Positions 5,001-48,078 of a stretch of DNA of 48,078 nucleotides are shown here, one piece after another; within the stretch, counting starts at the first letter, position 1, and each line of letters starts with the position of its first letter. The notes beneath the pieces are model-generated. The model was not told the origin of the DNA and did not search any database. It saw nothing but the letters and a program-made list of their open reading frames with translations. Source of the stretch: Gemmatimonadota bacterium (GTDB taxonomy: Bacteria > Gemmatimonadota > Gemmatimonadetes > Longimicrobiales > Gaopeijiaceae); NCBI GenBank assembly GCA_050050315.1, contig JASFUL010000001.1, forward strand, positions 1 to 48,078. The letters are read 5' to 3'. The translations under genes and the position numbers were made by a program.

Positions 5001-5317
5001 TGTCCCACGAGCTGCAGCTCGGCGACGCCGCCGTCCGCTTCGAGGGCGACCTCATCAACGTGCTGAACTTCCTGAACTCCGACTGGGGCCGCATCCAGTC
5101 GATCCGCTCGGTGGCCAACCTGCTGGACGTGAGCCGCCAGATCATCCTGGGTCGCCCCGGGCCCCTTTCCGCCCAGTGGGCGGGCCCCATCCTCCCCGCC
5201 GAGGACGAGGAGGGCGAGACGGTGTTCGACCCCGCCGACCCGTGGAACGTGCTTTCGCCCGATTCGCAGTGGCAGATGCAGTTCGGCGCCCGGGTCACCT
5301 TCGGAGGGAACAGGTAG
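2021..5317 (+). CDS. TonB-dependent receptor with N-terminal carboxypeptidase-regulatory-like domain
   Basis: 1098-aa ORF. It has a signal peptide (MSRTILRLGVLLALVWPAALAAQ). The CarboxypepD_reg-like beta-sandwich is visible (VRGTVTLADGTPLADVTVTV..NQAGRFLFPVLQPGGPYSLTVSRLGY), followed by a plug and a long beta-barrel rich in alternating aromatic/Gly/Asn strands. The start is ambiguous among the ATGs at 2021, 2042 and 2051. Confidence 0.9.
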   Translation: MHRRNPYMTRMSRTILRLGVLLALVWPAALAAQSRTTSAVRGTVTLADGTPLADVTVTVRQQETGASRSAATNQAGRFLFPVLQPGGPYSLTVSRLGYAEETREGMQLSVGETRTVDVVLREEAVELEGIEVGVERTEVFNPSQVGIATRLTERMVEEMPILSRNIMELAVLSPLVKTTEQGGFSVAGQNDRYNSILVDGVLNKDMFGLTAGGVPGGQAGAKLIPLDAVAQYEILIAPFDVRLSGFTGGVMNAVTRTGTNQWRIQGQGVHRNEVLLGDLTLPTGSTDTDGVDRSLVSLSVGGPIIRDEAHFFVTGEWEKRTQPPPGFNLFRDDLALVKVSESEATDFQEVLASQYGLDAGTAAPYSLGQELTNVFARLDWNFDNGLRLTARNVFARAQNDETPNRSAFDPYGLSSNGVFRTSTNNTTSIQLFSDFGTTGANELNLNVQHTSDQSAPVSDYPQVEVDLRSDIGGATFERGVRAGSEFFAQRNDLTQTTVRLTNSLTLNHENSAYKLGVTGAYYDIEHLYLPGATGSYFFANVDDLEQNVPQRWQRTLLADGIDPAVNFSVLEWGVFVQNQIDAGKGLTMRFGIRLDVPTVLDTPEENPVIADVFEQSTASLPENAWLISPRWGFNWQSDGPRRTQVRGGAGMFTGQLPFIWLSNAFHNNGLRSRTLYCEGKYTDADNTAGTAAPFDPSTPATACFGGSAPRVLRSVTVFQDGFKYPQDLKFSIGVDQELTDRVSGSLGLLFSKALNQVGLEELNLDDPSDLGDLENLEGFGGLQRRYFGHAATDGFAPNREQPGYDQVLLATNDGEDWAFSGSAELRGPITDRLSFQLGYAFSRSWDRTSLIFSDMISNYGFNPTGFNPNDPGLTTSNFDRPHKVVATVFGAPFEALPNTRISLLYTGQSGLPFSYVYGEDMNGDGYPGVGPAFDRFNDLVYVPNEASEVNSGFATQRLLAAALRTDECLAEHKGDILPRNACRAPWQNRLDLRVSHELQLGDAAVRFEGDLINVLNFLNSDWGRIQSIRSVANLLDVSRQIILGRPGPLSAQWAGPILPAEDEEGETVFDPADPWNVLSPDSQWQMQFGARVTFGGNR

Positions 5318-5341
5318 CGCGGGAGGGCCTATCAGCCCCCC

Positions 5342-5734
5342 ATGATCCCCCTCTCCATCGCGGTGGGCGGCGCCCTAGGGGCGCTCGCCCGCTACGGCCT
5401 CGGCGGCTGGGTCCACGGCTGGGCGGGGGCGGCCTTTCCCTGGGGCACCTTCGCCGTGAACGGGGTCGGATCCTTCGCCCTCGGGTTCTCCCTCCGCTGG
5501 GCCGAGGCCACGGCCGTCTCGCCCGAGGTGCGCGCGCTGGTCACCATCGGCCTGCTGGGCGCGTTCACCACCTTCAGCACGTACAGCTACGAGACCGTGG
5601 CCCTGCTTCGGGACGGCGAGTGGTCCCGCGGCGCGGCGTACGCCCTGGGGAGCCTGGCCCTCGGCCTGGTCGCCGTGGGCGCGGGCCTCGTGGCCGCGAA
5701 CTGGGCGCTCCACGGCTGGAGCTCTCCGGACTGA
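5342..5734 (+). CDS. crcB: Fluoride ion channel CrcB/FluC
   Basis: 130 aa with four hydrophobic segments. CrcB motifs are present (GGALGALARY, FPWGTFAVNGVGSFALGF, LLGAFTTFSTYSYE). Confidence 0.9.
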   Translation: MIPLSIAVGGALGALARYGLGGWVHGWAGAAFPWGTFAVNGVGSFALGFSLRWAEATAVSPEVRALVTIGLLGAFTTFSTYSYETVALLRDGEWSRGAAYALGSLALGLVAVGAGLVAANWALHGWSSPD

Positions 5735-5780
5735 TGGGACGCGCCGGCCCTCCGCCGCCCCCCGCCCCCCGCCAACGGAG

Positions 5781-6197
5781 GTGACGATGTCGCAGCGATT
5801 CCACGGCGAGCGCACCCTCATGCGGATCTTCATCGGCGAGAGCGACCGGTGCGAGGTCGGCGAGCACCGGGGGAAGCCGCTCTACGAGGCGCTCCTGCAC
5901 TTCTTCCGCCAGCGGGGGTTCGCCGGCGCCACCGTGCTGCGGGGCATCGCGGGGTTCGGCGCGAGCGCCCGCGTGCACACGGACCGCATCCTCCGCCTCT
6001 CGCTGGACCTGCCCATCGTCGTGGAGGTGGTCGAGACCGAGGCGCGGATCGAGGAGGTGCTCCCGGAGCTCGACCGGATGATCGGCGGCGCGCTCATCAC
6101 GCTGGAGCGCGCCCGGGTGATCCTCTACCGGCCGGCCGACGCCACCGACGACGAGCGGGACCGGCACCGGATGGAAGGCCTCGAGCCGGACGACTGA
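5781..6197 (+). CDS. DUF190 domain protein (CrcB-associated)
   Basis: The sequence RIFIGESDR..GKPLYEALLHFFRQRGFAGATVLRGIAGFGA..IVVEVVETE is typical of the DUF190 proteins encoded next to crcB. The start is GTG 5781 or ATG 5787. Confidence 0.85.
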   Translation: MTMSQRFHGERTLMRIFIGESDRCEVGEHRGKPLYEALLHFFRQRGFAGATVLRGIAGFGASARVHTDRILRLSLDLPIVVEVVETEARIEEVLPELDRMIGGALITLERARVILYRPADATDDERDRHRMEGLEPDD

Positions 6198-8977: not shown

Positions 8978-9823
8978 CTACGCCGTCGCGACCCGGCCGG
9001 TGGCCGCGTCCGGATCCGCCCGGAGCTTGCGCAGCCGCTGCCGGGCCAGCCACGCGGCGCCCAGAGCCGGGGTGAACTGGACCATGTCGCCCTCCGGTAC
9101 GTTCACCTCGGCCCCCAGCTCCCGGCGGATCACGTCGATCATCCGCTCGAAGCGGAGGATCCCGCCGATGAGCGTGAACTCGGGCTCCATCCGCACCCGC
9201 TTCATGAGCTGCACGGAACGCCCCACCAGTGACACGATGGCGCCGTGCATGATGTCCGCGGGGGCCGCCCCCTGGGAGAGGTGGTTGATGACCTCGGACT
9301 CGGCGAAGACGGCGCACACCCCCGAGATCGACACGGGCTCCTTGGAGGTCGCCACGAGCGGGCCGATCTCCTCGGTCTCGTAGCCCATGTAGCGGGCCGT
9401 CTTCTCGAGGAACGCCCCCGTTCCGGCGGCGCACTTGTCGTTCAGCCTGAAGGACTGCACCCGGGCCCCCTCGCCCAGGCGTGTGGCCTTCATGGTCTGT
9501 CCACCCACGTCCAGGATGGTCTCGGTCCCGGGGAAGAGGAGCGAGGCCCCCCGGGCCGCCGCGGTGAGGGAGGTGACGTGGAGGTCGCACGTCTCCACCT
9601 GGTGCCGGCCGAAGCCCGTGGCGATGGCGTACGCCACGTCGTCGAGGTCGAGGCCGGCTCCCGAGACGGCGGCCTCGAGCGCCTGCTGGCCCACCTCGGC
9701 CAGACGGAAGCCCGTCGGCTTCATGCACCGCCCCACCACCTCGCCGTCGCCGTCCATCACGAGCGCCTTGGTGTACGTCGACCCCACGTCGATCCCGGCC
9801 GTGTGCGTCCCGTGCGCGTTCAC
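8978..9823 (-). CDS. Benzoyl-CoA reductase ATPase subunit (BcrA/BzdQ-like; BcrAD_BadFG/HgdC family)
   Basis: I take the internal GTG 9823, which overlaps the upstream stop (GTGA). Motifs: [61 protein letters not shown]. Confidence 0.85.
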
Positions 9824-10662
9824 GCGGCACCTCCCGGGCCGGCGTCCGATCCGGCGCGTCCCGCGGAGGCCGGGACGCGGGCGGCGAGGACGTGGTCCAG
9901 CGCGAAGAGCGCGGCGCCCAGGGCCCCCATGTAGTGGGACTCCTCGCTCACGTTGAGCGGCACGCCCAGGCGTTCCTGGAGGGTCGCGATCATCGCCGTG
10001 TTGCGGGCCACCCCGCCGGTGAACGTGACCTCCTCCTCGACGCCGACCCGACGCAGCAGCCCCGCCGAGCGCGCCGCGATGGACTGGTGCACGCCCAGCA
10101 GGATGTCCTCGATCTTCTTGCCCTTGCCGAGCCAGGACAGCACTTCCGACTCCGCGAACACCGTGCACGTCGTGCTGATCTTGACCGGCCGCTCGCCCTC
10201 CAGCGCGGTGGGTCCGAGCCGGTCGAGGGGGATGTCGAGGGCCCTCGAGGCGGCCCCGAGGAAGCGTCCCGTGCCCGCGGCGCACTTGTCGTTCATGCAG
10301 AAGTCGAGGATCTCGCCCGCGGGCGACACGGAGATGGCCTTGGTGTCCTGGCCCCCCATGTCCACGACCGTGCGCGTGCGGGGGAACATGTGGGCCGCGC
10401 CCCGGCCGTGGCAGGAGATCTCGGTCACCTGGGTGTTGCCGAAAGTCACCTTGTAGCGGCCGTAGCCCGTGCCCACGACGTATTCGACCTCCTCCTCCTG
10501 GAGGTTCCCGGTCCGCAGCGCCTCCTCGAAGGCGCTCTCCGCCGCCCGGATCACGTTGGCGCCGGTCTCCACCAGGGCCCGGGCCGTGATGGCCCGATCC
10601 TCCCCGATGATCACGGCCTTGGTCTGGGTCGATCCGACGTCGACGCCGGCTGCGTATGCCAT
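9820..10662 (-). CDS. Benzoyl-CoA reductase ATPase subunit (BcrD/BzdP-like; HgdC-type activase fold)
   Basis: 280 aa with GGGAGGAG upstream of the ATG. Motifs: [80 protein letters not shown]. Confidence 0.85.
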
Positions 10663-10708
10663 CTCTCTCCTCCCTCGAACGACGGGTGTGACGCGGGTGC
10701 TCGTGGCG

Positions 10709-12061
10709 TTACGGCGACGGGGCCTCTCCGGCCGCGGTGGGGCCGGGGGCCTCCGCCGTGGCCGGACGCACCGCGGCCTGGGCGCGGCGGGACGCCAGAC
10801 CCTCGAAGAACGCGTCGATCCGGTTCTTCAGCTGGGCCTCCGACACGACGCGGCGGTCCATCATGTCCGACTCGATGAAGAGCGACGCCACGTCCCCCCG
10901 GTCCATGAGGGCCCGCCGGTTGTCGGCGAGCCCCGTGGAGACCGTGCGGCAGCTCTTGATCGGGTGGTAGACGACGCCGTCGGCCGAGAAATCGTCCAGC
11001 ATGGCGAGGAGGGCGTCGGTCTGGAAGAACATGCTGTCCATGGCGTCGCGGACGCTGAGCAGCAGACCCTCGGCCAGGCTCTCCAGGGGTCGCTCCAGGT
11101 CGTACTGGAAGCCCGCGTTCGTGCCTCCCGACGCGAACCACAGATAGGTCGAGTTCACGAACGCGCCGCCCCACTCCGCGAAGAGCTCGCCGAAGCGCCG
11201 GAAGATCGGGTAGCAGGGGACACCTACGAAGATCAGCCGGTACAGCTCCTCCGTGAGGGTCCCGATCCCGTGGTCGCGCTTGTACTCCATCTCCTCGACC
11301 AGCTCCTCGAAGTACGCCGCCCCCTCGGGACTCCCCCGCAGGGTGTTGGCCACGCCCAGGTAGATCGTGCCGTCGGTGAGTGCGTTGAAGAGCGCCGGGA
11401 CGGCCCGGTTGAGCTCGAGGACGCGCTTCCAGCAGCGGCTCATGGTGTTGGCGTGTTCCATCGACTCCCGGAGCCGGTCGATGTCGAAGGCCGTTCCGCT
11501 CACGTCCTCGAGGACCGGGATCAGCTCGCGGAGCTGGGCCAGCACGTACCGCCGGTCGTTCTCGAAGTCCGGGTGCCCCGGCCCGGGGTGGAGCCCGGCC
11601 TGCCGGCTGCCCGGCACGTCGAGGGTGAAGGTCGGGGCGCCGTGCATGCGCTCCCAGATCTCCGCCCACTTGATGTAGGTGTTGCAGGCGTTGGTGTTGA
11701 CGGCGATCGCGGGCGGGGGGACGCGGCCCATGGGCAGCCTCCCCCCCCGGAGCTGGGTCGCCACGTCGGCCTTCACGTACCCGCAGATGTCGGGAGAGTA
11801 GCCGTAGTCCTCGGCCTCGTTCAGGTACTCGTGCGCCACGTGGCGCACCGCCGTCTGGAGCGAGTTGATCTCGGGGAAGACCACGGGCAGGTCGAAGCAG
11901 CGGATGAGCTCCGCCAGGCTGCCCATGACGAAGACGTACGCCCCTCCCCCGCCTTCCTCGGCGGTGCGGGTGAGGTCTGCGAACCACTCCCGGAAGAGCC
12001 GCGCCCCTTCGGCGTTTCCCCTTCCCACGAGGTCCGTCGTGGTCGCTGTCGTTCCACCCAT
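10709..12061 (-). CDS. Benzoyl-CoA reductase subunit B-like (BcrB/BadE/BzdO; 2-hydroxyacyl-CoA dehydratase family)
   Basis: 450 aa. HgdB/BcrB-type features are present ([60 protein letters not shown]). It is a paralogue of the preceding gene. Confidence 0.85.
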
Positions 12062-12125
12062 CGGTGTCCCCCCGGTCGGTCGAGCGTCGGGGCCGCCGGC
12101 GCGCCGGCGGCTCGCGCGACGCGTC

Positions 12126-13298
12126 TCAGTCGAACATCAGGTTCTCGACGAAGGTCTCGAGCTGGATCTCGAGGTGGTCGAAGCTCGTCATGTTCTCCTC
12201 GAACTCGCTGACGAAGTACGGCACCCCGGCGTCGTCCAGGCTCCGCGTGTACGTCACCTGCTCCTCGAGCCCGGGCTCGCACATCTTGGCGGCGGTGACC
12301 ACGGCCGCCTCGGCGCCGGACGCCCGGACGCGCTCGAGCAACATGGCCTCCTTGGGCTTGCGGAGGTCGTGCTGGACCGGCGAGTAGCTGGAGCTCTCGA
12401 GATACGCCGTGGCCAGGGCCAGCAGGGGATCGTCGGCGTCGACGGGCACGTCCTCCAGGATCCAGCGCATCCCGATCATGAGGTCGTCGTCCACGACGTA
12501 GCAGGAGCGCGAGATCGCCCGGATCAGGTCCAGGGGCGGCTGCTCGCAGAAGCCCCCCTCGAAGACGACGCGAATCCGGTCGAGCCGGCGGGCGTCGCGG
12601 GCCTCGACGAGGGGGAGCGCCGTAGCCAGGAGCTCGTTGTGCTCCTCCCGCGGGACGAGGCCCCCGACCGCCGTGAGGACGTACGCCTCGTCGGCGGGGA
12701 GCAGCCACGGCGTGTCCCGCCGTATGCGGTACAGCTCGCGCAGGAGCGCGCGGTTCCGGTTGTACACGCCGAGGGAGCGGCGCAGCCCCTCGTCCGTGAC
12801 CTCGCCTCCGGTGGCCTCCTCCACGGTGCGACGGAGGCGGTCGTACTCGCCCCGGAGGTACGTCGGGGCCGAGGGCGAGTTGGCGTTCTGCGGGAGGTAG
12901 AGGATCTGGCAGGGGTACTCGAAGTTGCGCCCGAAGATACCCGCCAGGTTCCGGGCGGCGTCGCAGATGGGGTGCGTCACGAACAGGTCGAGCTCCACCC
13001 GGCCGCTCAGCGCCAGCTCCAGCGAGGTCTTGAGGATGCTGCAGAGGTAGGAGCCGAAGTGGGAGTCGGCCCGCGTGGGCTCCAGGGGCGCTCCGCGCAA
13101 GCGGAAGGGCAGGGCTCCCGCGGCGTGGACGATCTCCTCGGGGAAGTACACCTGGAAGTGTCCCACCACCGCGCCTCCCGCCTCCCGCCAGCGCCGCACG
13201 GTGGGGAAGTCCATGTCCTCCAGCAGCTCCCGGCAGGCGCCGAGGAGTCCCTCCAGGTCCCGGTCCCTCCACTCCGGGAAGACCTCCGGGGCGCTCAT
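12126..13298 (-). CDS. Benzoyl-CoA reductase subunit C-like (BcrC/BadD/BzdN; 2-hydroxyacyl-CoA dehydratase family)
   Basis: I take the internal ATG 13298, which overlaps the stop of the upstream crotonase (ATGA). 390 aa. Motifs: VVGHFQVYFPEEIVHAAGALPF, SYLCSILK, HPICDAARNL, VTAAKMCEPGLEE. Confidence 0.85.
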   Translation of the reverse strand: MSAPEVFPEWRDRDLEGLLGACRELLEDMDFPTVRRWREAGGAVVGHFQVYFPEEIVHAAGALPFRLRGAPLEPTRADSHFGSYLCSILKTSLELALSGRVELDLFVTHPICDAARNLAGIFGRNFEYPCQILYLPQNANSPSAPTYLRGEYDRLRRTVEEATGGEVTDEGLRRSLGVYNRNRALLRELYRIRRDTPWLLPADEAYVLTAVGGLVPREEHNELLATALPLVEARDARRLDRIRVVFEGGFCEQPPLDLIRAISRSCYVVDDDLMIGMRWILEDVPVDADDPLLALATAYLESSSYSPVQHDLRKPKEAMLLERVRASGAEAAVVTAAKMCEPGLEEQVTYTRSLDDAGVPYFVSEFEENMTSFDHLEIQLETFVENLMFD

Positions 13299-17985: not shown

Positions 17986-18591
17986 TCAGAAGGAGAAGTG
18001 GACCGGGCCCACGCCCCACTCGTGGCCGACCGTGAACGCGGCCAGGTTCGCGTCGACGGTGCCGGCGGGGACCGTCTCCGCGATGGCGCCGCGCCACGCG
18101 TGGAGGGGCAGCTCCACGTGGTGCGAGACGACGCCGAGGAGCGCCACGCCGGCGAGCTTCGGGTTGCCGAGCTCGGTGGCCGTCCGCAGGGCCGGGAAGA
18201 GCTCGAGGTCGATGTCCCGGGCCCGCGCCAGCCCCTCGAGGTCGTCGGGATAGTCGGCGCTCCGCAGCGCCTCGATCAGCGGCGTGATCCGTTCGTCCCC
18301 GACGACGGCGAGCCCCCCCGGCCGGAGGAGGTCGAGGTGACGGGCGGCCTCGAGGCGCTCGAACGCCACCAGGAGGTCGGCCTCACCCTCGGGCACCACG
18401 GGCGCCAGCTCGTCCGCGCCCCAGCGTACGGCCGTCACCACCGTCCCGCCCCGCTGGGACATCCCGTGCACCTCCGACGTCACCACCGCCCGGCCCGCCC
18501 GTCGGGCGGCCTCGGCGAGGATCCGCGTCGAGAGGACCGATCCCTGTCCCCCCACTCCCGCCAGAACGATGTTCGTGGTCTGCCGGCTCAT
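17986..18591 (-). CDS. iorB: Indolepyruvate/2-oxoacid:ferredoxin oxidoreductase beta (gamma-domain) subunit
   Basis: This is the last 201 aa of track ORF 17986-20997. The ATG at 18591 overlaps the upstream stop (ATGA). Motif: NIVLAGVGGQGSVLSTRILAEAA..EVHGMSQRGG. Confidence 0.85.
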   Translation of the reverse strand: MSRQTTNIVLAGVGGQGSVLSTRILAEAARRAGRAVVTSEVHGMSQRGGTVVTAVRWGADELAPVVPEGEADLLVAFERLEAARHLDLLRPGGLAVVGDERITPLIEALRSADYPDDLEGLARARDIDLELFPALRTATELGNPKLAGVALLGVVSHHVELPLHAWRGAIAETVPAGTVDANLAAFTVGHEWGVGPVHFSF

Positions 18592-21500
18592 CCTCGTCCC
18601 TCCCTGCGTGCCAGGTGTTGCGACGCCAGCTCGGCCGTCCGACGGCCGGTGGCGATCGCCTGGGTGACCGTGCCGTGTCCGAAGGCGGCGTCTCCGCACG
18701 CGAAGACGCCGGGACGGGACGTGGCCCCGGTGAAGTTGGTGGAGATCCTTCCGTTGCTCCGGATGCCGGTGCCGTCGAGGAGGGAGAGGTCCGCGGCTTC
18801 GCCGACCGCCAGGATCACGGAGTCGAAGGGCTCGCCGGTCTCGCTTCCCCCGACGGTCTCGGCCCGCCGGCGTCCGTCCGCCTCGGCCGCCCCCTGTCGC
18901 ATCGCGACGGTCACGATCTCGGCGATGCCGCCGTCGGGTCGCGCGCGCACGCGGACGGGCTGTCGCTGGAAGAGGAAGCGCACGCCTTCCCGGCGTGCCT
19001 CGTCGACCTCCTCCGGGATGGCCGGCATCTCCTCTTCCGTCCGCCGGTAGACGACGACCGCCTCGGCGCCGAGGCGGACCGCCGCGCGGGCGCAGTCGAC
19101 CGCCGTGTTCCCACCCCCGACGATCGCCACCCGGCGACCGATCTCCGGTCGGAGGCCGGCGTTGAAGCGATCGAGGAAGGTGAGGCCCGGAACCACCGCG
19201 TCGCCCACCGACCGCGCCCCCTCCAGGTCGACCACGCGGGAGCGATGATGGCCGACGGCCAGGACCACGGCCCCGTAGCGGGCCTCGAGCTCCTGGAGCG
19301 TCACGTCCTCGCCGACCCGCACGCCACACCGGAAGTCGACGCCGATGGCGCGGAACCGCGCCAGCTCGCCGTCGAGCACCTCCCGGGCCAGGCGGAAGCC
19401 GGGGATCCCCACGCGCAGCATCCCCCCGGGCTCGTCGGCCGACTCGAACACCGTGACCCGCCAGCCGGCCCGGCGGAGCGTCCACGCCGCCGAGAGCCCC
19501 GCCGGTCCGGAGCCCACCACGGCGGCCTCGCCGTCGCGTTCCTCGACGGGTCCGAGGCCCTCCGGGGGGCGCTCGAGGGCCAGGTCGCCGAGCCAGCGCT
19601 CGACCGCCCGCACCGAGATCCGGTCGTCCCGGTCGGCGGCGGGGAACCGATCCACGAGGGAGGGGTGCTCCTCCGCCCGCCGGGCTCCCTGGGGCCACCC
19701 GAGGGAGTTCACCTCCCGCTCGCAGGGGTGGGGACACACGCGGGCGGCCACCGCCGGGAGGGGGTTGGACCGGAGCAGCAGGCGCAGCGCCTCGTCGACC
19801 CGATCCCGGTCCACGAGCTCGAGGAGGAGCGGGACGTCGATGCCCGCGTTGCAGTCCGAGCACACCTGCTGGCACTGGGTGCAGCCGATGCACAGCAGCG
19901 GGCTCACGTGCATGCGCCCGTCGAGCTGCTCGAGCGCCGGGCATCCCAGCTCGGAGCAGGCGAGACATTCGACGCACCGCTCGGGGTCGATCGTCACCGC
20001 CGCTCCGATGCGGAGCTTCTCTTCGAGGACGCACGCCGACCGGGCGACGAGGACCGAGGCCGCGTCGGTCGCGGCGGCCCGGTCCAGGGCTCGCCAGGTC
20101 CCCATCAGGTCGTAGGCGTCGACGCGCTCGACGTCCTCCACGCCCAGGGCGCGGGCGAGCCCCTCGATGTCCACCGCAGGGGCCTCGCCCCCCGAGAGCC
20201 GGTGACCGGTGCCCGGGTGGTCCTGGTGGCCGGTCATGGCCGTCGTGCGGTTGTCCATCACCACCGTGGTGGCCGACCCCTCGTTGTACACGACGTCGAG
20301 GAGGCCCGTGATGCCCGAGTGGTAGAACGTGGAGTCGCCGATCACCGAGACCACCGGCGGGCCGTCCCCCCGCAGCACGTGTGTCATCCCGTGGGCCATC
20401 CCGATGGAGGCGCCCATGCACAGGCACGCGTCCATGGCGTCCAGCGGTGGGAGCGCCCCCAGCGTGTAGCAGCCGATGTCCCCCGAGACGATGGCGCCCA
20501 GACGATGGAGCCCGTGGAAGACGCCGCGATGGGCGCACCCGGGACAGAGGGCCGGGGCGCGCACCGGAAGGGTCGGCAGGGGCGCGGACGGAGCGGCCCG
20601 CGAGTGGGGGTCGGTGGACACCTCCCGGTCCGTACGCTCGCGGGCCCGTCGTGCGCGGCCGTTCCCCAGGAGCGCCTCGACCGACAGCTCGCCCCAGCGC
20701 GGCCACGTCCTCGGTTCGCATTCGACGCCGAGGGCGCGCAGCTGCTCTTCCAGGAAGGGCTCGAGCTCCTCGACCACCAGGACGCGACGCCCTTCCGCGA
20801 AGCGCAGGATGGCGTCGACGGGGAGCGGATAGCTCATCCCGAGCTTCAGCACCGGCGCTCCCGGAAACGCCTCGGCCGCGTACAGGAACGGCACCCCGGC
20901 CGTCACGATCCCGAAGTCCCTCCCCCGGCCTTCCCGCGTCTCGGCCCACGCCTCGGCCTCCGCTTCGAGGGCCGGCATCCTCTGCCCCTCGATCCAACGG
21001 TGCCGGAGACGCCCGTGGGCCGGCAGCACGACGTTCTTCACGCGGTCCTTCCGGTACGGCCGACGGGGGCCGTCCCGGCGCGGGTCGCGGCCCACGAGCC
21101 CCCTCCCGTGCGAGAGGCGCGTGGTGCTCCGCAGCAGCACGGGCGTGTCAAAGCGCTCCGAGAGGTCGAACGCGCGGCGCGTGAAGAGCCGGGCTTCCTC
21201 GGGGGTCGAGGGCTCCAGCAGGGGAAGCCGGGCGGCCCGGGCGAAGTGGCGGTTGTCCTGCTCGTTCTGGGACGAGTGCATCCCCGGGTCGTCGGCCGTC
21301 ACGACCACCAGACCGCCGTTCACCCCCATGTAGGACGCGCTGAAGAGGGGGTCGGCCGCGACGTTCAGCCCCACGTGCTTCATGGTGGCCAGGGCGCGGC
21401 CGCCCGCCAGCGACGCTCCCACGGCCACCTCGAGGGCCACCTTCTCGTTGGGTGACCACTCGCAGTACGGGCCCGCGTCGCCCCCGTCCCCGGGGCCCCC

Positions 21501-21641
21501 GTCGGCGAGTCGTGCGAGGGTCTCGAGGATCTCGGTGCTCGGCGTGCCCGGATAGCCGGCGGCCACCCGGACGCCCCCCTCCCAGGCGCCCCGCGCGATC
21601 GCCTCGTTCCCGGAAAGGAGGGCGCGGGTATCTATGTCCAT
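18588..21641 (-). CDS. Fusion protein: indolepyruvate:ferredoxin oxidoreductase alpha (TPP + 2x[4Fe-4S]) fused to a GltD-like NAD(P)H-dependent FAD oxidoreductase
   Basis: I take the internal ATG 21641 (MDIDTRALLSGNEAIARGAWEGG). TPP motifs are present (GDIGCYTLG, GDSTFYHSGITGLL), as are ferredoxin motifs (CVECLACSELGCP, CIGCTQCQQVCSDC). These are followed by VCPHPCE, AAVVGSGPAGLSAA, VAIVGGGNTAVDCA and GVFACGDA. Confidence 0.85.
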   Translation of the reverse strand: MDIDTRALLSGNEAIARGAWEGGVRVAAGYPGTPSTEILETLARLADGGPGDGGDAGPYCEWSPNEKVALEVAVGASLAGGRALATMKHVGLNVAADPLFSASYMGVNGGLVVVTADDPGMHSSQNEQDNRHFARAARLPLLEPSTPEEARLFTRRAFDLSERFDTPVLLRSTTRLSHGRGLVGRDPRRDGPRRPYRKDRVKNVVLPAHGRLRHRWIEGQRMPALEAEAEAWAETREGRGRDFGIVTAGVPFLYAAEAFPGAPVLKLGMSYPLPVDAILRFAEGRRVLVVEELEPFLEEQLRALGVECEPRTWPRWGELSVEALLGNGRARRARERTDREVSTDPHSRAAPSAPLPTLPVRAPALCPGCAHRGVFHGLHRLGAIVSGDIGCYTLGALPPLDAMDACLCMGASIGMAHGMTHVLRGDGPPVVSVIGDSTFYHSGITGLLDVVYNEGSATTVVMDNRTTAMTGHQDHPGTGHRLSGGEAPAVDIEGLARALGVEDVERVDAYDLMGTWRALDRAAATDAASVLVARSACVLEEKLRIGAAVTIDPERCVECLACSELGCPALEQLDGRMHVSPLLCIGCTQCQQVCSDCNAGIDVPLLLELVDRDRVDEALRLLLRSNPLPAVAARVCPHPCEREVNSLGWPQGARRAEEHPSLVDRFPAADRDDRISVRAVERWLGDLALERPPEGLGPVEERDGEAAVVGSGPAGLSAAWTLRRAGWRVTVFESADEPGGMLRVGIPGFRLAREVLDGELARFRAIGVDFRCGVRVGEDVTLQELEARYGAVVLAVGHHRSRVVDLEGARSVGDAVVPGLTFLDRFNAGLRPEIGRRVAIVGGGNTAVDCARAAVRLGAEAVVVYRRTEEEMPAIPEEVDEARREGVRFLFQRQPVRVRARPDGGIAEIVTVAMRQGAAEADGRRRAETVGGSETGEPFDSVILAVGEAADLSLLDGTGIRSNGRISTNFTGATSRPGVFACGDAAFGHGTVTQAIATGRRTAELASQHLARREGRG

Positions 21642-21814
21642 CAGCCCTTCGGCTTCGAAAACGTCGTCGGCCCCGCCTCTGGCGGAGACTCGTGAAAAAA
21701 GGTGCAATCCCCGAGGGGCCTCCGGGTATCGGGGGATCCGCGCCCCGTCGTGTCGGGGTTTCCCCCACAATCTCCCTGTCCCGGCCCGCCCCCGGCGATT
21801 AAGCTTCAGACACC

Positions 21815-22651
21815 ATGTCCCGCGTGCGTTCCCCGGCCGTGGCCGGACGGTTCTACGCGGCCGATCCGTCGGTCCTCCGGGCCGCCGTGCGCGGCTACCT
21901 CCGGGAGGCGCGCGACGACCCCGCGCTCCCCCGGTCCGCACCACCCGAGGCCCTTGTCGCACCCCACGCCGGGTACGTCTTCTCGGGTCCCGTGGCCGGA
22001 AGCGCATACGCGGCGCTGGCCCGCTCCGGTCGCTCACCCACCACGGTCGTCCTCATCGGTCCGGCGCACTACCGGCCCGTGCGGGGGCTGGCGGTCCCCA
22101 CGGCCCGGGCGTTCCGAACCCCCCTCGGGACCGTGCCGGTGGACGGGGGCGCGATGGAGGCGGCGCGGGCGCTCCCCATCGTCCAGGAGGACGACCGCGC
22201 CCACGCGCCGGAGCACGCCCTCGAGACCCAGATCCCGTTCCTCCAGGTGGTGTTGGGAGACTTCGCCGTCGTGCCGCTGCTGGCCGGCGCTGCGTCGGGC
22301 GGCGAGGTGGCCGCCGTCCTGGACGCCCTGTGGGGCGAGAACACCCTCGTCGTGATCAGCTCGGACCTGAGCCACTACCTCCCCTACGGAGAGGCGCGCC
22401 GGCGGGACGCGCGCACGGCGGCGGCCGTCGAGGCGTTGGATCCGGGGGCGGTCGGGCCCGACGACGCGTGCGGGTGGATGCCGTTGCGGGGTCTCCTGGA
22501 GGCTGCGCGCGGACGGGGCCTGGGGGCCCGGACGCTGGACCTGCGCAACTCGGGCGACACGGTCGGCCCCCGGGACCGCGTGGTCGGATACGGGGCGTTC
22601 GCCTTCGGCGCCGCCGCCGGGGGGAGCGGCCGGGACGGGGGCCATGGCTGA
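21815..22651 (+). CDS. amrB: AmmeMemoRadiSam system protein B (Memo-like)
   Basis: Motifs: PAVAGRFYAADPSVL, APHAGYVFSG, HALETQIPFLQ, ISSDLSHYLPY, ACGWMPL, VVGYGAFAF. Confidence 0.85.
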   Translation: MSRVRSPAVAGRFYAADPSVLRAAVRGYLREARDDPALPRSAPPEALVAPHAGYVFSGPVAGSAYAALARSGRSPTTVVLIGPAHYRPVRGLAVPTARAFRTPLGTVPVDGGAMEAARALPIVQEDDRAHAPEHALETQIPFLQVVLGDFAVVPLLAGAASGGEVAAVLDALWGENTLVVISSDLSHYLPYGEARRRDARTAAAVEALDPGAVGPDDACGWMPLRGLLEAARGRGLGARTLDLRNSGDTVGPRDRVVGYGAFAFGAAAGGSGRDGGHG

Positions 22652-42483: not shown

Positions 42484-43673
42484 GCGAGGCCGGAGGGGAC
42501 GGCGCGCCGCTCCCGCTGGACGGCGTGCGCGTGGTGGACCTCTCCCAGAACCTGGCGGGGCCCTTCGCGACCCAGATCCTGGGCGACCTGGGCGCCGACG
42601 TGGTGAAGGTCGAGCCGCCGGGGGGCGATCCGGCCCGGGCCTGGGGTCCCCCGTTCGTGGACGGCGAGAGCCCCCTCTTCCTGTGCGCCAACCGCAACAA
42701 GAGGAGCGTGGTCCTCGACCTCGAGCGGGAGGAGGAGCGTCGCGTCCTCGCGGCGCTGGCCTCGGGGGCGGACGTCTTCGTCCAGGCGTTCCGGAGCGGG
42801 GTGATCGAACGGCTCGGCTTCGACGAAGCCCGGGTCCGGGCGCTGCGGGAGGACGTGATCTACGTGTCCGTCACGGCCTACGGCGACGGGGGCCCGCTCC
42901 GGGACCAGCCGGGCTACGACCCGCTCATGCAGGCCCACGGCGGCCTGATGTCCGTCACCGGCCACCCCGGCGGCGCGCCGGCGAGGGTGGGCACGAGCGT
43001 CGTCGACCTGGGCACGGGCCTCTGGGTCGCGACGGCCGTGCTGGCCGCGCTCCGCACCCGGGACGCGACCGGGCGGGGAGCCCACGTCACCACGTCCCTC
43101 CTCGACACCGCCGTGGGCTGGATGGCCTACCATCTCCAGGGCCACCTCGCCAGCGGGGACGTTCCGGGTCTCTCGGGCACGGGGATCGGGATGATCGCGC
43201 CGTACGAGGCCTTCCCGACCCGGGAGGGCTTCGTGATGATCGCCGCCGGCAACGACGCCACGTTCCGGCGCCTGTGCGCGGCCCTCGGGGTGCCCGGGCT
43301 GGCCGCCGACCCGCGCTACGCGACGAATCCCATGCGCGTCGAGCGCCGGGACGAGCTGGTGGTCGCGCTGTCGGCGCGCACCCGGGAGCACGCCCCGGAC
43401 GCCTTGCTGGAGACGCTGCGGGACGCGTCCGTCCCGTGCGCCAGGATCCAGAACGTGGGAGAGGTGGTCCGGGACGTCCAGGTGCGAGCCTCGGGCATGC
43501 TCCGCGACGCTCCGGCGAGCGAACGATGGCCCCGGGGAAGCTACGTCGACGTCGCGGCGCCTCCGCGCTGGGACGGGCGCCGCGCGCCGGTCCGTCGGCC
43601 TCCGCCCGCCGTCGGCGAGCACACGGCCGAGATCCTCTCGGAGGTGGACCCTCCGGACGGCCCGCCTCCCTGA
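42480..43673 (+). CDS. Family III CoA-transferase (CaiB/BaiF)
   Basis: GTG 42480 overlaps the dksA-like stop (GTGA). Motifs: LDGVRVVDLSQNLAGPFATQILGDLGADVVKVEPP, NRNKRSV, GYDPLMQAHGGLMSVTG, VVDLGTG. Confidence 0.85.
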   Translation: MSEAGGDGAPLPLDGVRVVDLSQNLAGPFATQILGDLGADVVKVEPPGGDPARAWGPPFVDGESPLFLCANRNKRSVVLDLEREEERRVLAALASGADVFVQAFRSGVIERLGFDEARVRALREDVIYVSVTAYGDGGPLRDQPGYDPLMQAHGGLMSVTGHPGGAPARVGTSVVDLGTGLWVATAVLAALRTRDATGRGAHVTTSLLDTAVGWMAYHLQGHLASGDVPGLSGTGIGMIAPYEAFPTREGFVMIAAGNDATFRRLCAALGVPGLAADPRYATNPMRVERRDELVVALSARTREHAPDALLETLRDASVPCARIQNVGEVVRDVQVRASGMLRDAPASERWPRGSYVDVAAPPRWDGRRAPVRRPPPAVGEHTAEILSEVDPPDGPPP

Positions 43674-43805
43674 CGTCATCCTTGCACGAACCGGTGGGGC
43701 GCGTCCGGGGGCTCCCTGTTGCGGACGCCGTGCCGCACCCCCATCCTACCCCTGCCCCGCGTCGGGGCTCGCGCACCTTCCCGTGAATCCACGCACGGAG
43801 GACCC

Positions 43806-44042
43806 ATGAAGATCCGCGCATCGATGCTCCTTGCCGGTCTCACCGCTCTCGCTCTCGGTTGTGGCGGCGCGGACGAGGCGGACACGGGCGAGATGGGTGA
43901 GATGGAGTCGGAGATGGTCGACTCCGCCGGCGGCATGATGGAAGAGGGCGAGATGGGCGACACCATGATGCCCGACACCATGCAGGGCATGCCCGAAGAA
44001 ATGATGGAGGACACCACCGGAGGGATGTCCGGAGGGCGGTGA
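43806..44042 (+). CDS. Small methionine/glutamate-rich putative lipoprotein (78 aa)
   Basis: GGAGGA lies 3 nt upstream of the ATG. The signal peptide ends ALALGC. The mature 59 aa contain 13 Met, 11 Glu and 6 Asp, with no His, no aromatic residues and no further Cys. Third-position GC is high. Confidence 0.6.
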   Translation: MKIRASMLLAGLTALALGCGGADEADTGEMGEMESEMVDSAGGMMEEGEMGDTMMPDTMQGMPEEMMEDTTGGMSGGR

Positions 44043-44109
44043 GCCCGGCCCCGGGGGGTCCGCTGCGGTCGTCGGGACCACGACGTCGACGACCGCGGGG
44101 CCCCCTCCG

Positions 44110-44940
44110 GTGAAGCGACATCACCTCGTCGTCCGCGTCACCCACTGGGTGAACGTGGTGGCGTTGACGATCATGGTGACCAGCGGTCTCCGGATCTTCA
44201 ACGCCTATCCCCGCTTCGCGCCCCGGGGCGGGACCTTCTGCTGCTATCCGTTCGAGGGGCGGTCCATCCCGGACTGGCTCACCTTCGGGGGCTGGCTGGC
44301 CGGCGCGCGCAACTGGCACTTCGCCATGATGTGGGTGCTGGTGGTCAACGGCCTGCTCTACCTGGGCTGGTTGTACCTGCACGGCGAATGGCGCACGGTC
44401 ACCCCTCGCCGCGGGGACCTGCGCGACGCGTGGCAGATGACCCGGTTCTACCTCTTCCTCCGTCCCGACCATCCGCCCCAGGCCAAGCACAACGCCCTCC
44501 AGCGGCTCTCGTACTTCGCCATGCCCCTCGTGGGCGTCGTGGCCGTGCTGACCGGCCTGGCCATCTGGAAACCCACCTCCCTCGGTTGGCTGACCGGGGT
44601 CTTCGGCGGGTACGTCTGGGCCCGGTACTGGCACTTCGTCGCCATGCTCGCGCTCGTGGCGTTCTCGCTGGTGCACGTCTTCATGGTGATCAGCGTGGAT
44701 CCGTGGTCCATGAGGGCCATGATCACCGGCGGGTACGACGAGTCGCGCTCTCCCGCCGCCCGCAACGCCCGGCCGTTCGTGAACCTCGGGAAGGCGCCGG
44801 CGCGGGAGGGCCGGGAGGTCGGGCCAGGCGGTCCCGGGGGAGACGCTCCCTCCGAGCCCGCGGCTTCCGACGCCGCCCCCGACGACGCCTCGCCCACCGA
44901 CGCCGCCCCCGACGTCGACGCGCGGACGGAGAAGCCATGA
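44110..44940 (+). CDS. Membrane b-type cytochrome (cytochrome b561 / Ni-hydrogenase cyt b-like, 4 TM)
   Basis: Motifs: RVTHWVNVVAL, NWHFAMMW, KHNALQRLSY, YWHFVAMLALVAFSLVHVF. These give conserved His on the TM helices. The C-terminal tail is Pro/Asp/Ala-rich and looks disordered. Confidence 0.8.
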   Translation: MKRHHLVVRVTHWVNVVALTIMVTSGLRIFNAYPRFAPRGGTFCCYPFEGRSIPDWLTFGGWLAGARNWHFAMMWVLVVNGLLYLGWLYLHGEWRTVTPRRGDLRDAWQMTRFYLFLRPDHPPQAKHNALQRLSYFAMPLVGVVAVLTGLAIWKPTSLGWLTGVFGGYVWARYWHFVAMLALVAFSLVHVFMVISVDPWSMRAMITGGYDESRSPAARNARPFVNLGKAPAREGREVGPGGPGGDAPSEPAASDAAPDDASPTDAAPDVDARTEKP

Positions 44941-45641
44941 TGGACCGGAGGAAGTTCCTGGCCCTCGGCGGCATGTCCTTTTCGGCCTTCCTGGCCGGGT
45001 GTGACTCCCGCGGTCCCCGCGCCGCTCGTCCGCTGCTCGACTTCGCCCAGCGCCAGAACGAGAAGATCGAGCGGATCCTGACGCGCCACACGGCCATCGA
45101 CGTGGCCGAGGACTACCCCCTGGCCGGACGCGCGCTGCCCGCCTACTACGTGTCGCGCAGCGTACCCGTCTGGGACGAGGCGCAACGGGGTCGCTGGCGC
45201 CTCGAGGTGACGGGGCTGGTGGATCGACCGCTCCGACTCTCCCTCGACGAGCTCCAGCGGCTCCCGTCGGTGACCCAGCGGGTGAACCACTACTGCGTCG
45301 AGGGGTGGATGGCCGTCACCGAGTGGACGGGGGTCCGCCTCCGCGAGCTGGCCGACGCCGCCGGCGTGAGGTCGGACGCCGCGTTCGTGGACTTCGAGTC
45401 GTTCGACTCGGGCTACCACGAGAGCTGGGACCTGGAGAGCGCCCTCCACCCCCAGACGCTGGTCGCCTACGGGTGGGAGGGAAACCTCCTCGGGGCGATG
45501 CACGGGGCGCCCGCGCGGCTGCACTCGCCCGCGAAGCTCGGCTACAAGAACGTGAAGTACCTGACCCGGGTGGTGTTCATGCCCGCGGCCAACGGCGGCT
45601 ACTGGAGCGACCAGGGCTACGAGTGGTACGGCGGAACGTGA
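44937..45641 (+). CDS. Molybdopterin-dependent oxidoreductase (sulfite-oxidase fold, YedY/MsrP-like), TAT-exported lipoprotein
   Basis: The ATG overlaps the cyt b stop (ATGA). It has a twin-arginine motif (DRRKFL) plus the lipobox LAGC. Oxidored_molyb motifs are present (QRVNHYCVEGW, HGAPARLHSPAKLGYKNVKYL). Confidence 0.85.
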   Translation: MMDRRKFLALGGMSFSAFLAGCDSRGPRAARPLLDFAQRQNEKIERILTRHTAIDVAEDYPLAGRALPAYYVSRSVPVWDEAQRGRWRLEVTGLVDRPLRLSLDELQRLPSVTQRVNHYCVEGWMAVTEWTGVRLRELADAAGVRSDAAFVDFESFDSGYHESWDLESALHPQTLVAYGWEGNLLGAMHGAPARLHSPAKLGYKNVKYLTRVVFMPAANGGYWSDQGYEWYGGT

Positions 45642-45649
45642 GGCGCGCG

Positions 45650-48078
45650 ATGGATACGAGGGTCCGGATGTCGACGTTCGTCCTCCTGCTCCTGGCGGCG
45701 GTCGCCGCACCCGCCGGGGGCGGGGCGCAGTCCCCGGAATCCCCCGGCGCAGCGCACGTCGACCGGGCGCTCTCGGGGCTCCGGCTGCGGGGGATCGGTC
45801 CGGCCGTCATGGGCGGTCGCATCGCCGACATCGCCGTGAGCCCCGCGGACCCGAGCACGTGGTACGTCGCCGTGGGGTCGGGGAACCTCTGGAAGACGGT
45901 GAACGCCGGGATCACCTGGACGCCCGTCTTCGACGACCGGTCGTCGTACTCCCTCGGGACCGTCGCGGTGGATCCCTCCAACCCCGACGTCGTCTGGCTC
46001 GGGACGGGCGAGAACGTGAGCGGTCGTCACGTGGCGTGGGGGGACGGCGTGTACCGCAGCGGGGACGCGGGCCGGACGTGGCGGCGTGCGGGGCTGGAGC
46101 GGTCGGAGCACGTGGGGCGCATCCTCGTGGATCCTCGGGACGGAGACGTGGTCCTGGTGGCCGCCGAGGGTCCCCTCTGGTCCCCGGGCGGTCAGCGCGG
46201 CGTCTTCCGGACGACCGACGGGGGCGAGACCTGGGAGGCCGTGCTGGAGATCGACGAGGACACGGGCGTCACTGATCTCGAGCGTCACCCCACCGACCCG
46301 GACGTGCTCTACGCGGCGGCCTACCAGCGCCGGCGCCACGTGTGGGGCTTCCTGGCCGGGGGGCCGTCCTCGGGCATCTGGAAGTCCACGGACGGGGGCG
46401 CGACCTGGCGGCGAGTCGAGACCGGGCTGCCATCGGGCGACGTGGGGAAGATCGGGCTGGCGGTCACGCCGGCGGATCCCGACCGGGTGTACGCGACCGT
46501 CGAGGCGCAGCCTCCCGAGCGGGGCTTCTACCGTTCCGACGACCGGGGCGAGAGCTGGCGGAAGACGAGCTCGTACGTCTCGGGAGGGACCGGGCCCCAC
46601 TACTACCAGGAGATCGAAGCCTCCCCCGTCGCCGCCGACGTCGTCTACCAGATGGACGTCTTCATCCAGGTCACCCGCGACGGCGGGACCACCTTCGACT
46701 ACCTCGGCACGGGGAGCGAGGCCCACAGCGACAACCACGCCCTCTGGATCGACCCGGCCGACGGGCGCCACCTCCTGGCCGGGACGGACGGCGGCCTGTA
46801 CGAGTCGTTCGACGAGGGCTCCACCTGGCGGCACTTTCCCAACCTGCCGATCTCCCAATTCTACAAGCTCGCGCTGAGCAGCCGGTCGCCCTACTACGAC
46901 ATCCTCGGGGGGGCCCAGGACCTGGGTACCCTCGTCGGGCCCGTCCGCACGACGAACGTCGAAGGAGTCCGGAACCGCGACTGGACGGTGCCCATGGGTG
47001 CCGACGGGTACGGGGTCGCCATCGACCCGGAGGATCCCGACGTCCTCTATCTCGAGACCCAGGTGGGCAACCTCTTCCGGTACGACCGCCGGAGCGACGA
47101 GGCGCTGAGCATCCAGCCCCAGCCCGCTCCCGGCGATCCCGCCGAGCGCTGGAACTGGGACGCGCCGATCCTGGTGAGCCCCCACGACCCCCACCGGCTC
47201 TGGTTCGCCTCGCAGCGACTGTGGCGGAGCGACGACCGTGGGGACTCGTGGACCCCGGTGAGCGGCGACCTCACCCGGAACCGGAACCGCTACGAGCTGC
47301 CCTACATGGACCGCGTGCGGAGCGTCGACGCGCTCTTCGACCTCGGGGCCATGTCGCAGTACGCCACGCTCACGGCCATCTCCGAGTCGCCCGTCGCGGA
47401 GGGGGTGCTCTACGTGGGGAGCGACGACGGCCTGATCCAGGTGAGCGAGGACGGAGGCGCCGGGTGGCGTCGGGCCGCCGCGCTGCCGGACACCCCCGAG
47501 CTGGCGTTCGTGAACGACGTCGAGGCGTCGCTCCACGACGCCGGCACCGTGTTCGCCGTGGCCGACGCCCACAAGCTGGGCGACTACCGGCCCCTGGTGT
47601 TCGAGAGCGGCGACCGGGGGCGGACGTGGCGCTCGATCGCCGGCGACCTGCCCGGCGGGACGATCGTGTGGGCCGTGCAGCAGGACCACGTGGACCCCGA
47701 CCTCCTGTTCGCCGCCACCGAGTACGGCCTCTACTTCACGCCCGACCGGGGCGCGAGCTGGCACGAGCTCGGGGCCGGCGTGCCGACCATCGCGTTCCGC
47801 GACCTGAAGCTGCAGCGGCGGGACGGCGACCTGGTGGGCGCCAGCTTCGGCCGGGGGTTCTGGGTGCTGGACGACTACTCCCCGCTGCGGGAGATCGCCG
47901 CGAGCGCGCTGGAGGCCGACGCCACCCTGATGCCGATCCGGGACCCCTGGTGGTACGTGCCCAACATCCCCATGCAGGCCCGGGGCAAGCCGACCCTCGG
48001 CAGCGACGACTACACCGCCCCCAACCCGCCCTTCGGGGCCGTGATGACCTACTGGCTGCGGGACGTCCCGGAAACCCT
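45650..48078 (+). CDS. BNR/Asp-box, sortilin(VPS10)-like repeat protein, exported (3' end outside the window)
   Basis: This frame is absent from the track because it has no stop before the window end. My own translation gives MDTRVRMSTFVLLLLAAVAAPAGGGAQ.., IADIAVSPADPSTWYVAVGSGNLWKTVNAGITWTPVF, repeated S/T-x-D-x-G-x-T-W motifs (SGDAGRTW, TTDGGETW, STDGGATW, SDDRGESW, SEDGGAGW, SGDRGRTW), and GRGFWVLDD near the end. Confidence 0.8.
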   Translation, partial: MDTRVRMSTFVLLLLAAVAAPAGGGAQSPESPGAAHVDRALSGLRLRGIGPAVMGGRIADIAVSPADPSTWYVAVGSGNLWKTVNAGITWTPVFDDRSSYSLGTVAVDPSNPDVVWLGTGENVSGRHVAWGDGVYRSGDAGRTWRRAGLERSEHVGRILVDPRDGDVVLVAAEGPLWSPGGQRGVFRTTDGGETWEAVLEIDEDTGVTDLERHPTDPDVLYAAAYQRRRHVWGFLAGGPSSGIWKSTDGGATWRRVETGLPSGDVGKIGLAVTPADPDRVYATVEAQPPERGFYRSDDRGESWRKTSSYVSGGTGPHYYQEIEASPVAADVVYQMDVFIQVTRDGGTTFDYLGTGSEAHSDNHALWIDPADGRHLLAGTDGGLYESFDEGSTWRHFPNLPISQFYKLALSSRSPYYDILGGAQDLGTLVGPVRTTNVEGVRNRDWTVPMGADGYGVAIDPEDPDVLYLETQVGNLFRYDRRSDEALSIQPQPAPGDPAERWNWDAPILVSPHDPHRLWFASQRLWRSDDRGDSWTPVSGDLTRNRNRYELPYMDRVRSVDALFDLGAMSQYATLTAISESPVAEGVLYVGSDDGLIQVSEDGGAGWRRAAALPDTPELAFVNDVEASLHDAGTVFAVADAHKLGDYRPLVFESGDRGRTWRSIAGDLPGGTIVWAVQQDHVDPDLLFAATEYGLYFTPDRGASWHELGAGVPTIAFRDLKLQRRDGDLVGASFGRGFWVLDDYSPLREIAASALEADATLMPIRDPWWYVPNIPMQARGKPTLGSDDYTAPNPPFGAVMTYWLRDVPET

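Follow-up and report, generated by a model that had tools for sequence, protein, structure and literature searches.

A methionine-rich lipoprotein gene linked to a cytochrome b/molybdoenzyme pair in one clade of Gemmatimonadota: a candidate oxidant sink of the cell envelope

According to a 2026 review, oxidized methionine is repaired in the periplasm by MsrP together with MsrQ, on which MsrP depends (PMC13488963). Enzymes of the MsrP type prefer unfolded substrates with clustered methionines (10.1101/243626), and the known substrates of Escherichia coli MsrP include Met-rich or unfolded envelope proteins and Spy, whose methionines become oxidized when cells face chlorite and are then repaired by MsrP (PMC12503329). 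In Azospira suillum PS, the operon yedY1Z1-mrpX additionally encodes MrpX, a protein with a signal peptide, 20% Met and an otherwise mostly charged composition (Melnyk et al., 2015, PMC4436054), and experiments on this system have shown it to be a sink of sacrificial Met residues that respiratory electrons regenerate (PMC4436054). Here, we describe a three-gene locus found in a 48,078-nt stretch of DNA from a Gemmatimonadota bacterium (GCA_050050315.1, contig JASFUL010000001.1, positions 1–48,078 of the forward strand), referred to as the window. It encodes a small Met-rich acidic lipoprotein, a cytochrome b and a short, lipid-anchored molybdenum cofactor (Moco) protein, the genes of which lie in this order on the + strand and are presumably co-transcribed. 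The Met-rich open reading frame (ORF) proved to be a real, selected, clade-specific accessory gene of a wider two-gene module formed by the other two.

The resemblance to MrpX, which a preliminary description of the window had pointed out, was borne out by a Met content of 22% in the mature small protein versus 20% in MrpX, by the signal peptide and by the shared operon (PMC4436054). In both systems a small exported protein with about 20% Met and otherwise mostly charged residues is encoded with a Tat (twin-arginine translocation)-exported Moco enzyme of the SUOX fold and a membrane b-type cytochrome, and the logic proposed for both is a Met sink recharged by respiratory electrons. The likeness between the two small proteins is one of composition and of operon partners, MrpX being known here by its published description. 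The differences are considerable. The Met-rich gene comes first in Gemmatimonadota but last in Azospira, and MrpX is soluble and built from Met, Lys, Glu, and Asp (10.1101/243626), whereas its Gemmatimonadota counterpart is lipid-anchored and purely acidic (Met, Gly, Glu, Asp, and Thr with one basic residue). The cytochrome belongs to PF01292 instead of the YedZ/MsrQ type, the Moco subunit has only 234 amino acids (aa) and a lipid anchor, the sigF/nrsF genes are not adjacent in the Gemmatimonadota loci, and the lineage is Gemmatimonadota, not Proteobacteria. Pairing a sacrificial Met-rich peptide with a Moco reductase is already known as a concept. The construction seen in Gemmatimonadota is new: a PF01292 cytochrome takes the place of MsrQ, the Moco subunit is short and carries a lipid anchor, and the Met-rich protein, likewise lipid-anchored and purely acidic, has no detectable family.

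The Met-rich gene (43806..44042, +, 78 aa) is preceded by a strong Shine–Dalgarno sequence, GGAGG at 43797..43801 (+), 4 nt 5′ of the ATG and identical in the counterpart locus L081. The product reads MKIRASMLLAGLTALALGC followed by GGADEADTGEMGEMESEMVDSAGGMMEEGEMGDTMMPDTMQGMPEEMMEDTTGGMSGGR, and comprises a signal peptide (43806–43859), the lipobox Cys19 (codon 43860–43862) with GG directly after it, and a mature part rich in Met, Glu, Asp, and Gly (43863–44039), which includes the conserved motif GMPEEMM. The 59 residues past the Cys contain 13 Met, 11 Glu, 6 Asp, and 1 Arg, that is, 22% Met, 29% Asp/Glu and 31% charged residues, with no His, Cys, or aromatic residue and with the methionines densely placed in MxxM, MM, and MxxxM spacing, just as the preliminary description had stated. 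Because it is extremely acidic and Gly-rich, the mature chain is predicted to be disordered. When all six frames of the window were scanned for stretches with at least 8 Met per 40 residues, this ORF was the only one found. Its GC content at the three codon positions (0.63/0.47/0.82) is of the coding type, and comparison with L081 (91% nucleotide identity) revealed 13 synonymous and two nonsynonymous changes plus an in-frame four-codon indel, hence the ORF is under purifying selection. It has no Pfam or NCBIfam match, and a tandem-repeat finder run on the locus returned just one marginal 9-nt repeat of 2.2 copies. A role as a leader peptide or attenuator was also considered and ruled out by the conserved signal peptide and lipobox and by the purifying selection.

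The distribution of this gene was followed by homology and by synteny. Searches with the 78-aa protein, word-indexed against 5.8 billion proteins and as a full HMMER scan against 1.84 billion representatives, yielded only P0122, which is 93% identical and has gained 4 aa by an in-frame insertion, and P0123 (59%). Both are encoded directly upstream of a cytochrome b gene; the genes upstream of P0123 are quite different. The nearly empty result reflects the low complexity of the protein, which defeats such tools; a search of metagenome contigs with the alignment of the small proteins found nothing either. A degenerate DNA pattern for GMPEEMM returned 80 loci, of which just one (L174, on the same contig as L095) was a true case, the others being chance matches in unrelated proteins. 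In contrast, among contigs pulled via relatives of the cytochrome b, a Met-rich acidic lipoprotein ORF was found in the corresponding place in L083 (where the contig end truncates it), L090, L091, L092, L095, and L096, while L093 and L094 had none. Altogether nine contigs, including the window, carry such an ORF on the same strand, 3–67 nt upstream of the cytochrome gene. Full-length versions, eight in all, measure 74–104 aa with 15–24% Met, 15–30% Asp/Glu and almost no basic, His, or aromatic residues, and their pairwise identity goes down to 37–59%. All eight have a signal peptide and a lipobox Cys, with a canonical lipobox in seven (AVEC in L086). In their alignment Cys19 and several Met are invariant, GMPEEMM is conserved and the C-terminus is Gly-rich. 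Each positive locus has flanking genes of its own (CoA-transferase, flavin reductase, Usp, sigma-54 activator, hydrolase, LPG synthase, and sulfatase genes), so the only constant companion of the Met-rich ORF is the cytochrome b/Moco pair. It is also apparent that six of the eight relatives escaped the word-indexed and HMMER searches and were found solely via synteny; small low-complexity genes of this type are probably much under-counted.

Outside this group the ORF is missing. None of the 74 species-representative loci with enough upstream DNA had a Met-rich ORF before the cytochrome gene, L085 lacks it despite a Moco protein 73% identical to that of the window, and a lower-threshold six-frame Met scan of all loci (approximately 700 kb) detected only an unrelated HslU segment. 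In a neighbour-joining tree of the cytochrome b sequences, all nine positive loci fell into one clade of twelve, the negatives inside the clade being L025, L093, and L094, while none of the about 75 loci outside was positive. The 9 of 12 positives within the clade against about 75 negatives outside mark the gene as a clade-specific accessory and not as a universal third component of the module, and the simplest history that the sequences suggest would be one gain followed by a few losses. The preliminary description had proposed a genome search for small Met-rich ORFs upstream of the pair and had named their absence from syntenic loci as evidence against its proposal. Such absence holds for most of the family but not for the clade of the window.

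The second gene (44110..44940, +, GTG start) encodes a di-haem cytochrome b of 276 aa and lies 67 nt downstream of the Met-rich ORF (spacer 44043..44109, +); the corresponding spacers in the relatives measure 3–47 nt. The protein matches PF01292 (Ni_hydr_CYTB, prokaryotic cytochrome b561) end to end (1.4e-28), while no match to Ferric_reduct (PF01794-type) was found in the Pfam scan. The best NCBIfam match is the HyaC-like model TIGR02125 with 83.5 bits, under the cut-off of this model. Hydropathy revealed four transmembrane segments, and the residues His12, His70, His175, and His189, present without exception in 90 of 90 relatives, form the di-haem pattern of the family; these haem His residues are on segments 6–24, 70–90, and 173–201. 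These results bear out the assignment in the preliminary description of a four-helix b561/PF01292-type partner distinct from the ferric-reductase-type MsrQ, and the Pfam scan that it had suggested as a check returned PF00174 and PF01292 for the pair. Two further features of the cytochrome were observed. A vicinal pair Cys44–Cys45 (FCCYPF, window 44239–44244) in the first periplasmic loop is kept in 97% of the 90 Gemmatimonadota sequences and is absent in the proteobacterial loci L088 and L089. The C-terminal cytoplasmic tail (window 44788–44937) is an acidic, low-complexity sequence rich in Ala, Pro, Asp, and Glu, and its length is highly variable, the protein having 276 aa in the window and 338 aa in the 91%-identical L081 (1402–2418).

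The ATG of the third gene (44937..45641, +, 234 aa) overlaps the TGA of the cytochrome gene as ATGA. PF00174 (3.3e-36) is the sole Pfam domain of the product. The twin-arginine motif RRKF (residues 4–7; RR codons at 44946–44951), the lipobox LAGC (Cys22, codon 45000–45002, followed by Asp) and NHYCVEGW with the Mo-ligand Cys120 (codon 45294–45296) show no variation among 14 aligned relatives, including R4, R5, and F7 of the Tat motif. Consequently, the short, twin-arginine-exported and lipid-anchored sulfite-oxidase-fold enzyme of the preliminary description was recovered in every detail. Several comparisons placed it nearer to YedY/MsrP than to the sulfite dehydrogenases. The top NCBIfam match was MsrP (NF003767, 92 bits vs. 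a cut-off of 207, profile positions 97–263 of 320), whereas the sulfite-dehydrogenase models reached 27–69 bits against cut-offs of 420–600. A family-profile search of the PDB gave 1e-19 for E. coli YedY (1xdq) and 2e-9 for SorA. Foldseek with the AlphaFold model (mean pLDDT 64.5, with a well-modelled core and the N-terminal 75 residues unmodelled) returned 1xdy/1xdq as the best matches with 30–32% identity. The C120-V-E-G-W segment aligns with Cys102-Val-Glu104-Ala-Trp of E. coli MsrP (mature YedY numbering), and the GAPxR and K-x-G-x-K motifs are common to both proteins. Pfam, NCBIfam, and the neighbouring genes revealed neither the C-terminal dimerization domain of sulfite dehydrogenases nor a cytochrome c partner. 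On the basis of this ranking, the shared motifs and the lack of the dimerization domain and cytochrome c, the protein is YedY-like in its active-site framework, and a clustering with sulfite dehydrogenases, which would have spoken against the original proposal, was found neither by sequence nor by fold.

The similarity to the E. coli MsrP/MsrQ (YedY/YedZ) system comprises the Moco fold, the C-V-E-x-W, GAPxR, and K-x-G-x-K motifs, the Tat signal, and the pairing with a membrane haem-b protein via overlapping genes. However, the Moco protein is 29–32% identical to MsrP, about 100 residues shorter without the C-terminal extension, and a lipoprotein, whereas MsrP is soluble, and its partner is a four-transmembrane PF01292 cytochrome, while MsrQ is a six-transmembrane ferric-reductase-domain flavocytochrome (haem b/FMN). 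Judged by sequence, the Moco protein falls outside the MsrP equivalog family, and its partner outside the definition of MsrQ.

The cytochrome b/Moco pair itself is widespread. More than 4,600 database homologues of the Moco protein were found at E ≤ 1e-5. The best 120 are 63–81% identical, and the named ones among them come almost exclusively from Gemmatimonadota (Longimicrobium and Gemmatimonadaceae) and are called just “molybdopterin-dependent oxidoreductase” or “YedYZ catalytic subunit.” From species-representative genomes 80 loci were collected, 78 of them with upstream DNA, and a PF01292 cytochrome b gene was located immediately upstream of the Moco gene in all 78. Clustering of the neighbours of the 80 loci detected no conserved regulator and no other conserved neighbour. 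In Gemmatimonadaceae, the pair is embedded in a housekeeping block with topA, trmFO, xerC, hslV, and hslU. The same pair is also present on plasmids of Agrobacterium, Rhizobium, and Variovorax with 38% identity over the full length. These plasmid pairs, annotated as “cytochrome b/b6 domain-containing” and “molybdopterin-binding” proteins, share the two-gene layout with overlapping stop and start codons, PF01292, the Tat signal, a lipobox (LSGC) with Asp at +2 and the C-terminus GYEWY(A/G)G, and have DCVEGW as the active-site motif. Unlike the window, they have no Met-rich ORF and are preceded instead by TetR and a 208-aa exported hypothetical protein, for which no Pfam family was found. Two plasmid examples, both annotated generically, are L088:1748–5769 (NC_015184.1) and L089:1685–5466 (CP063168.1), with the order TetR, 208-aa exported hypothetical protein, PF01292 cytochrome b, Tat-lipoprotein Moco protein, and a DUF308-like membrane protein. 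The distinct two-gene architecture claimed in the preliminary description is therefore real and widespread. As for its novelty, no prior description of this architecture was found in the searchable literature, which is no proof that none exists.

A second, independent link to Met-rich envelope proteins was detected in another subclade of Gemmatimonadaceae, where in seven loci an exported LTXXQ (Spy/CpxP-family) gene lies directly 3′ of the Moco gene on the same strand (L004:5715–6509, L010:5831–6592, L032:5838–6545, L033:5751–6506, L037:5892–6638, L045:5886–6650, and L049:2154–3020). The products match PF07813 (7.6e-11) and have Gly/Met/Arg-rich tails with 6–11% Met, such as GMQMGPGMQMGPGRGG; M-H-M and M-x-M motifs occur in these tails. 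The Moco gene of the Met-rich-positive locus L083 is followed within 4 kb (region 2834–5891) by a sigma-54-dependent activator gene and then by msrA (4705–5364) and msrB (5361–5891), msrA/msrB being about 3 kb downstream, and in L091 (502–1785) a sigma-54 activator gene lies divergently upstream of the Met-rich ORF. The LTXXQ linkage and the msrA/msrB genes of L083 are circumstantial, but both point toward a methionine sulfoxide reductase.

Considering these data, the explanation that we favour for the three-gene operon is a rechargeable oxidant sink of the envelope, in which the cytochrome/Moco pair would restore a sacrificial poly-Met lipoprotein by reducing its sulfoxides; we hold this proposal to be about as likely as not. 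Quinol would reduce the two b haems of the PF01292 cytochrome, which would hand the electrons to the Mo centre of the Tat-exported Moco lipoprotein. The latter has an invariant Asp at +2, and by the Lol-avoidance rule of E. coli, Asp in this position keeps a lipoprotein at the inner membrane. If the rule also applies in Gemmatimonadota, as we presume, the enzyme would be retained beside its cytochrome. It would act as an S-oxide reductase, like its nearest characterized relative MsrP. Its substrates would be the Met sulfoxides of the disordered poly-Met lipoprotein encoded with it, and probably those of further envelope proteins. The lipoprotein, with Gly or Ala at +2, could be sorted to the outer membrane, and its disordered chain of about 60 residues would expose every thioether, so that HOCl, chloramines, and other oxidants might be scavenged. 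In this scheme, we infer which way the electrons flow, what the enzyme reduces and that the lipoprotein scavenges oxidants. The presence of a Met-rich partner and the likeness to MsrP are consistent with it because MsrP prefers unfolded, Met-clustered proteins. In a broader and more tentative form, which we hold to be possible but somewhat short of probable, the pair would represent a second type of respiratory-chain-linked envelope methionine sulfoxide reductase that works without MsrQ and has thousands of members, one clade having acquired a lipid-anchored poly-Met “antioxidant brush” and another a Met-rich, Spy-like co-encoded client.

Several observations weigh against the sink proposal. 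Hydrogenase and formate dehydrogenase subunits of the PF01292 family donate electrons to quinone, while PhsC takes them from quinol; the family thus runs in both directions, so the direction assumed above is a presumed one. The score of the Moco protein is far under the MsrP equivalog cut-off (92 vs. 207 bits), and at about 30% identity another S- or N-oxide, or an unrelated compound, could be the substrate. The about 75 loci outside the clade and the proteobacterial pairs have no Met-rich partner, and as most loci of the family manage without one, the core function of the pair should be independent of it. In GMPEEMM, the best-conserved motif of the lipoprotein, a Pro follows the Met, and a Met-Pro context is unfavourable for the MsrP of R. 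sphaeroides (10.1101/243626). The conservation of this motif hints at specific binding over mere bulk scavenging, and the MxxM/MxxxM spacing fits Cu(I) binding as well. Finally, no regulator of the type that responds to reactive chlorine species (SigF/NrsF or HprSR) adjoins the operon in the window.

These points lead to the other explanations of the locus. The small ORF might be a chance frame in GC-rich DNA and no gene: it belongs to no Pfam or NCBIfam family, has just two or three sequence relatives in the searches of 5.8 and 1.8 billion proteins, and is overlapped by several spurious antisense ORFs. This explanation is effectively refuted by the ratio of 13 synonymous to two nonsynonymous changes with an in-frame indel, by the strong Shine–Dalgarno sequence, by the signal peptide and lipobox Cys kept in all eight full-length versions, and by ORFs of the same type at the same position on nine contigs in spite of their divergence. 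A more substantial alternative is Cu(I)/Ag(I) binding by the Met-rich lipoprotein, which would serve the envelope as a thioether “sponge” or chaperone, the Moco reductase keeping its Met ligands reduced or being linked to it otherwise. The dense Met spacing of the Cys-free mature part and a conserved GMPEEMM, suggestive of a defined site, would suit such a protein, and clustered MxxM/MxxxM thioethers are shared with exported Cu(I) proteins such as CusF and the Met-rich region of CueO. Met-rich segments recruit Cu(I) in CueO, CusF, CopA, and others (PMC11494321; PMC9302797), and the M-H-M and M-x-M motifs in the LTXXQ tails of the other subclade are of the same kind. Moreover, MsrPQ of E. coli is induced by copper via CusSR and repairs CusF (PMC9302797), and because this Met-based chaperone is repaired by a copper-induced MsrPQ, copper binding and an oxidant sink can coexist. 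However, neither the 48-kb window nor the flanking DNA of the eight further Met-rich-positive loci was found to contain a gene for copper resistance or copper trafficking, the only constant neighbour of the gene being the cytochrome b/Moco pair. In addition, the lipoprotein differs from CusF and CueO by its much higher Met and acidic content and by the lack of His/Trp co-ligands and of any folded-domain signature, and its very acidic, Gly-rich sequence predicts disorder over a folded Cu site. We therefore consider a copper protein rather unlikely.

Alternatively, the pair may not be a methionine sulfoxide reductase at all, but a quinone-reducing dehydrogenase or a reductase of another S- or N-oxide or of an oxyanion, with the Met-rich protein in an ancillary role (protection of the enzyme or membrane, decoy, or assembly). 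Such a different chemistry is compatible with the low identity to MsrP and with scores below every NCBIfam cut-off, and also with the wide occurrence of the family without a Met-rich partner, including the proteobacterial plasmids with TetR and the 208-aa exported protein. HyaC-like cytochromes, the group of the top NCBIfam match TIGR02125, usually accept electrons from periplasmic dehydrogenases, and a metagenomic survey takes other SUOX homologues of marine Gemmatimonadota as sulfite oxidases (PMC11316326), so sulfite oxidase is already in use as a default annotation in this phylum. On the other hand, the active-site motif is of the YedY type (CVEGW) and not of the sulfite-oxidase type, neither the dimerization domain nor a cytochrome c is present, and it would be difficult to account in another way for two independent linkages to exported Met-rich proteins, which makes this alternative unlikely. 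If the pair is a methionine sulfoxide reductase, MsrP-type chemistry would be wired to the quinone pool via a different cytochrome family, an MsrP-type enzyme would be tethered to the membrane, and sacrificial Met-rich proteins would have arisen at least twice (MrpX and the Gemmatimonadota lipoprotein). A function would then also be assigned to a large family annotated just as “molybdopterin-dependent oxidoreductase/cytochrome b,” in a phylum of which few members have been cultured, and caution would be advisable before such SUOX homologues are called sulfite oxidases in metagenomic surveys.

As for the surroundings of the operon, a promoter/terminator scan of 43500–45900 found no promoter-like or terminator-like site on the + strand, and an Rfam scan detected neither a Moco riboswitch nor another RNA family at the locus. 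When the window, L081, and L086 were aligned upstream of the operon, no common promoter motif was revealed beyond the close pair, and no sigma/anti-sigma gene stands beside the operon, either in the window or in the eight further Met-rich-positive loci. Downstream, an exported Sortilin/VPS10-BNR repeat protein of more than 809 aa (window 45650–48078, running off the window) begins 8 nt past the Moco stop codon and may be co-transcribed with the operon; its place beside the pair is not conserved among the other loci. Two further regions on the − strand of the window are unrelated to the genes described above: 9820–12136 encodes a 2-hydroxyacyl-CoA dehydratase D-component and a BcrAD/BadFG-type activator ATPase, and 18588–22052 encodes a 1,154-aa fusion of POR/TPP, 4Fe-4S, and pyridine-nucleotide-disulfide oxidoreductase domains.

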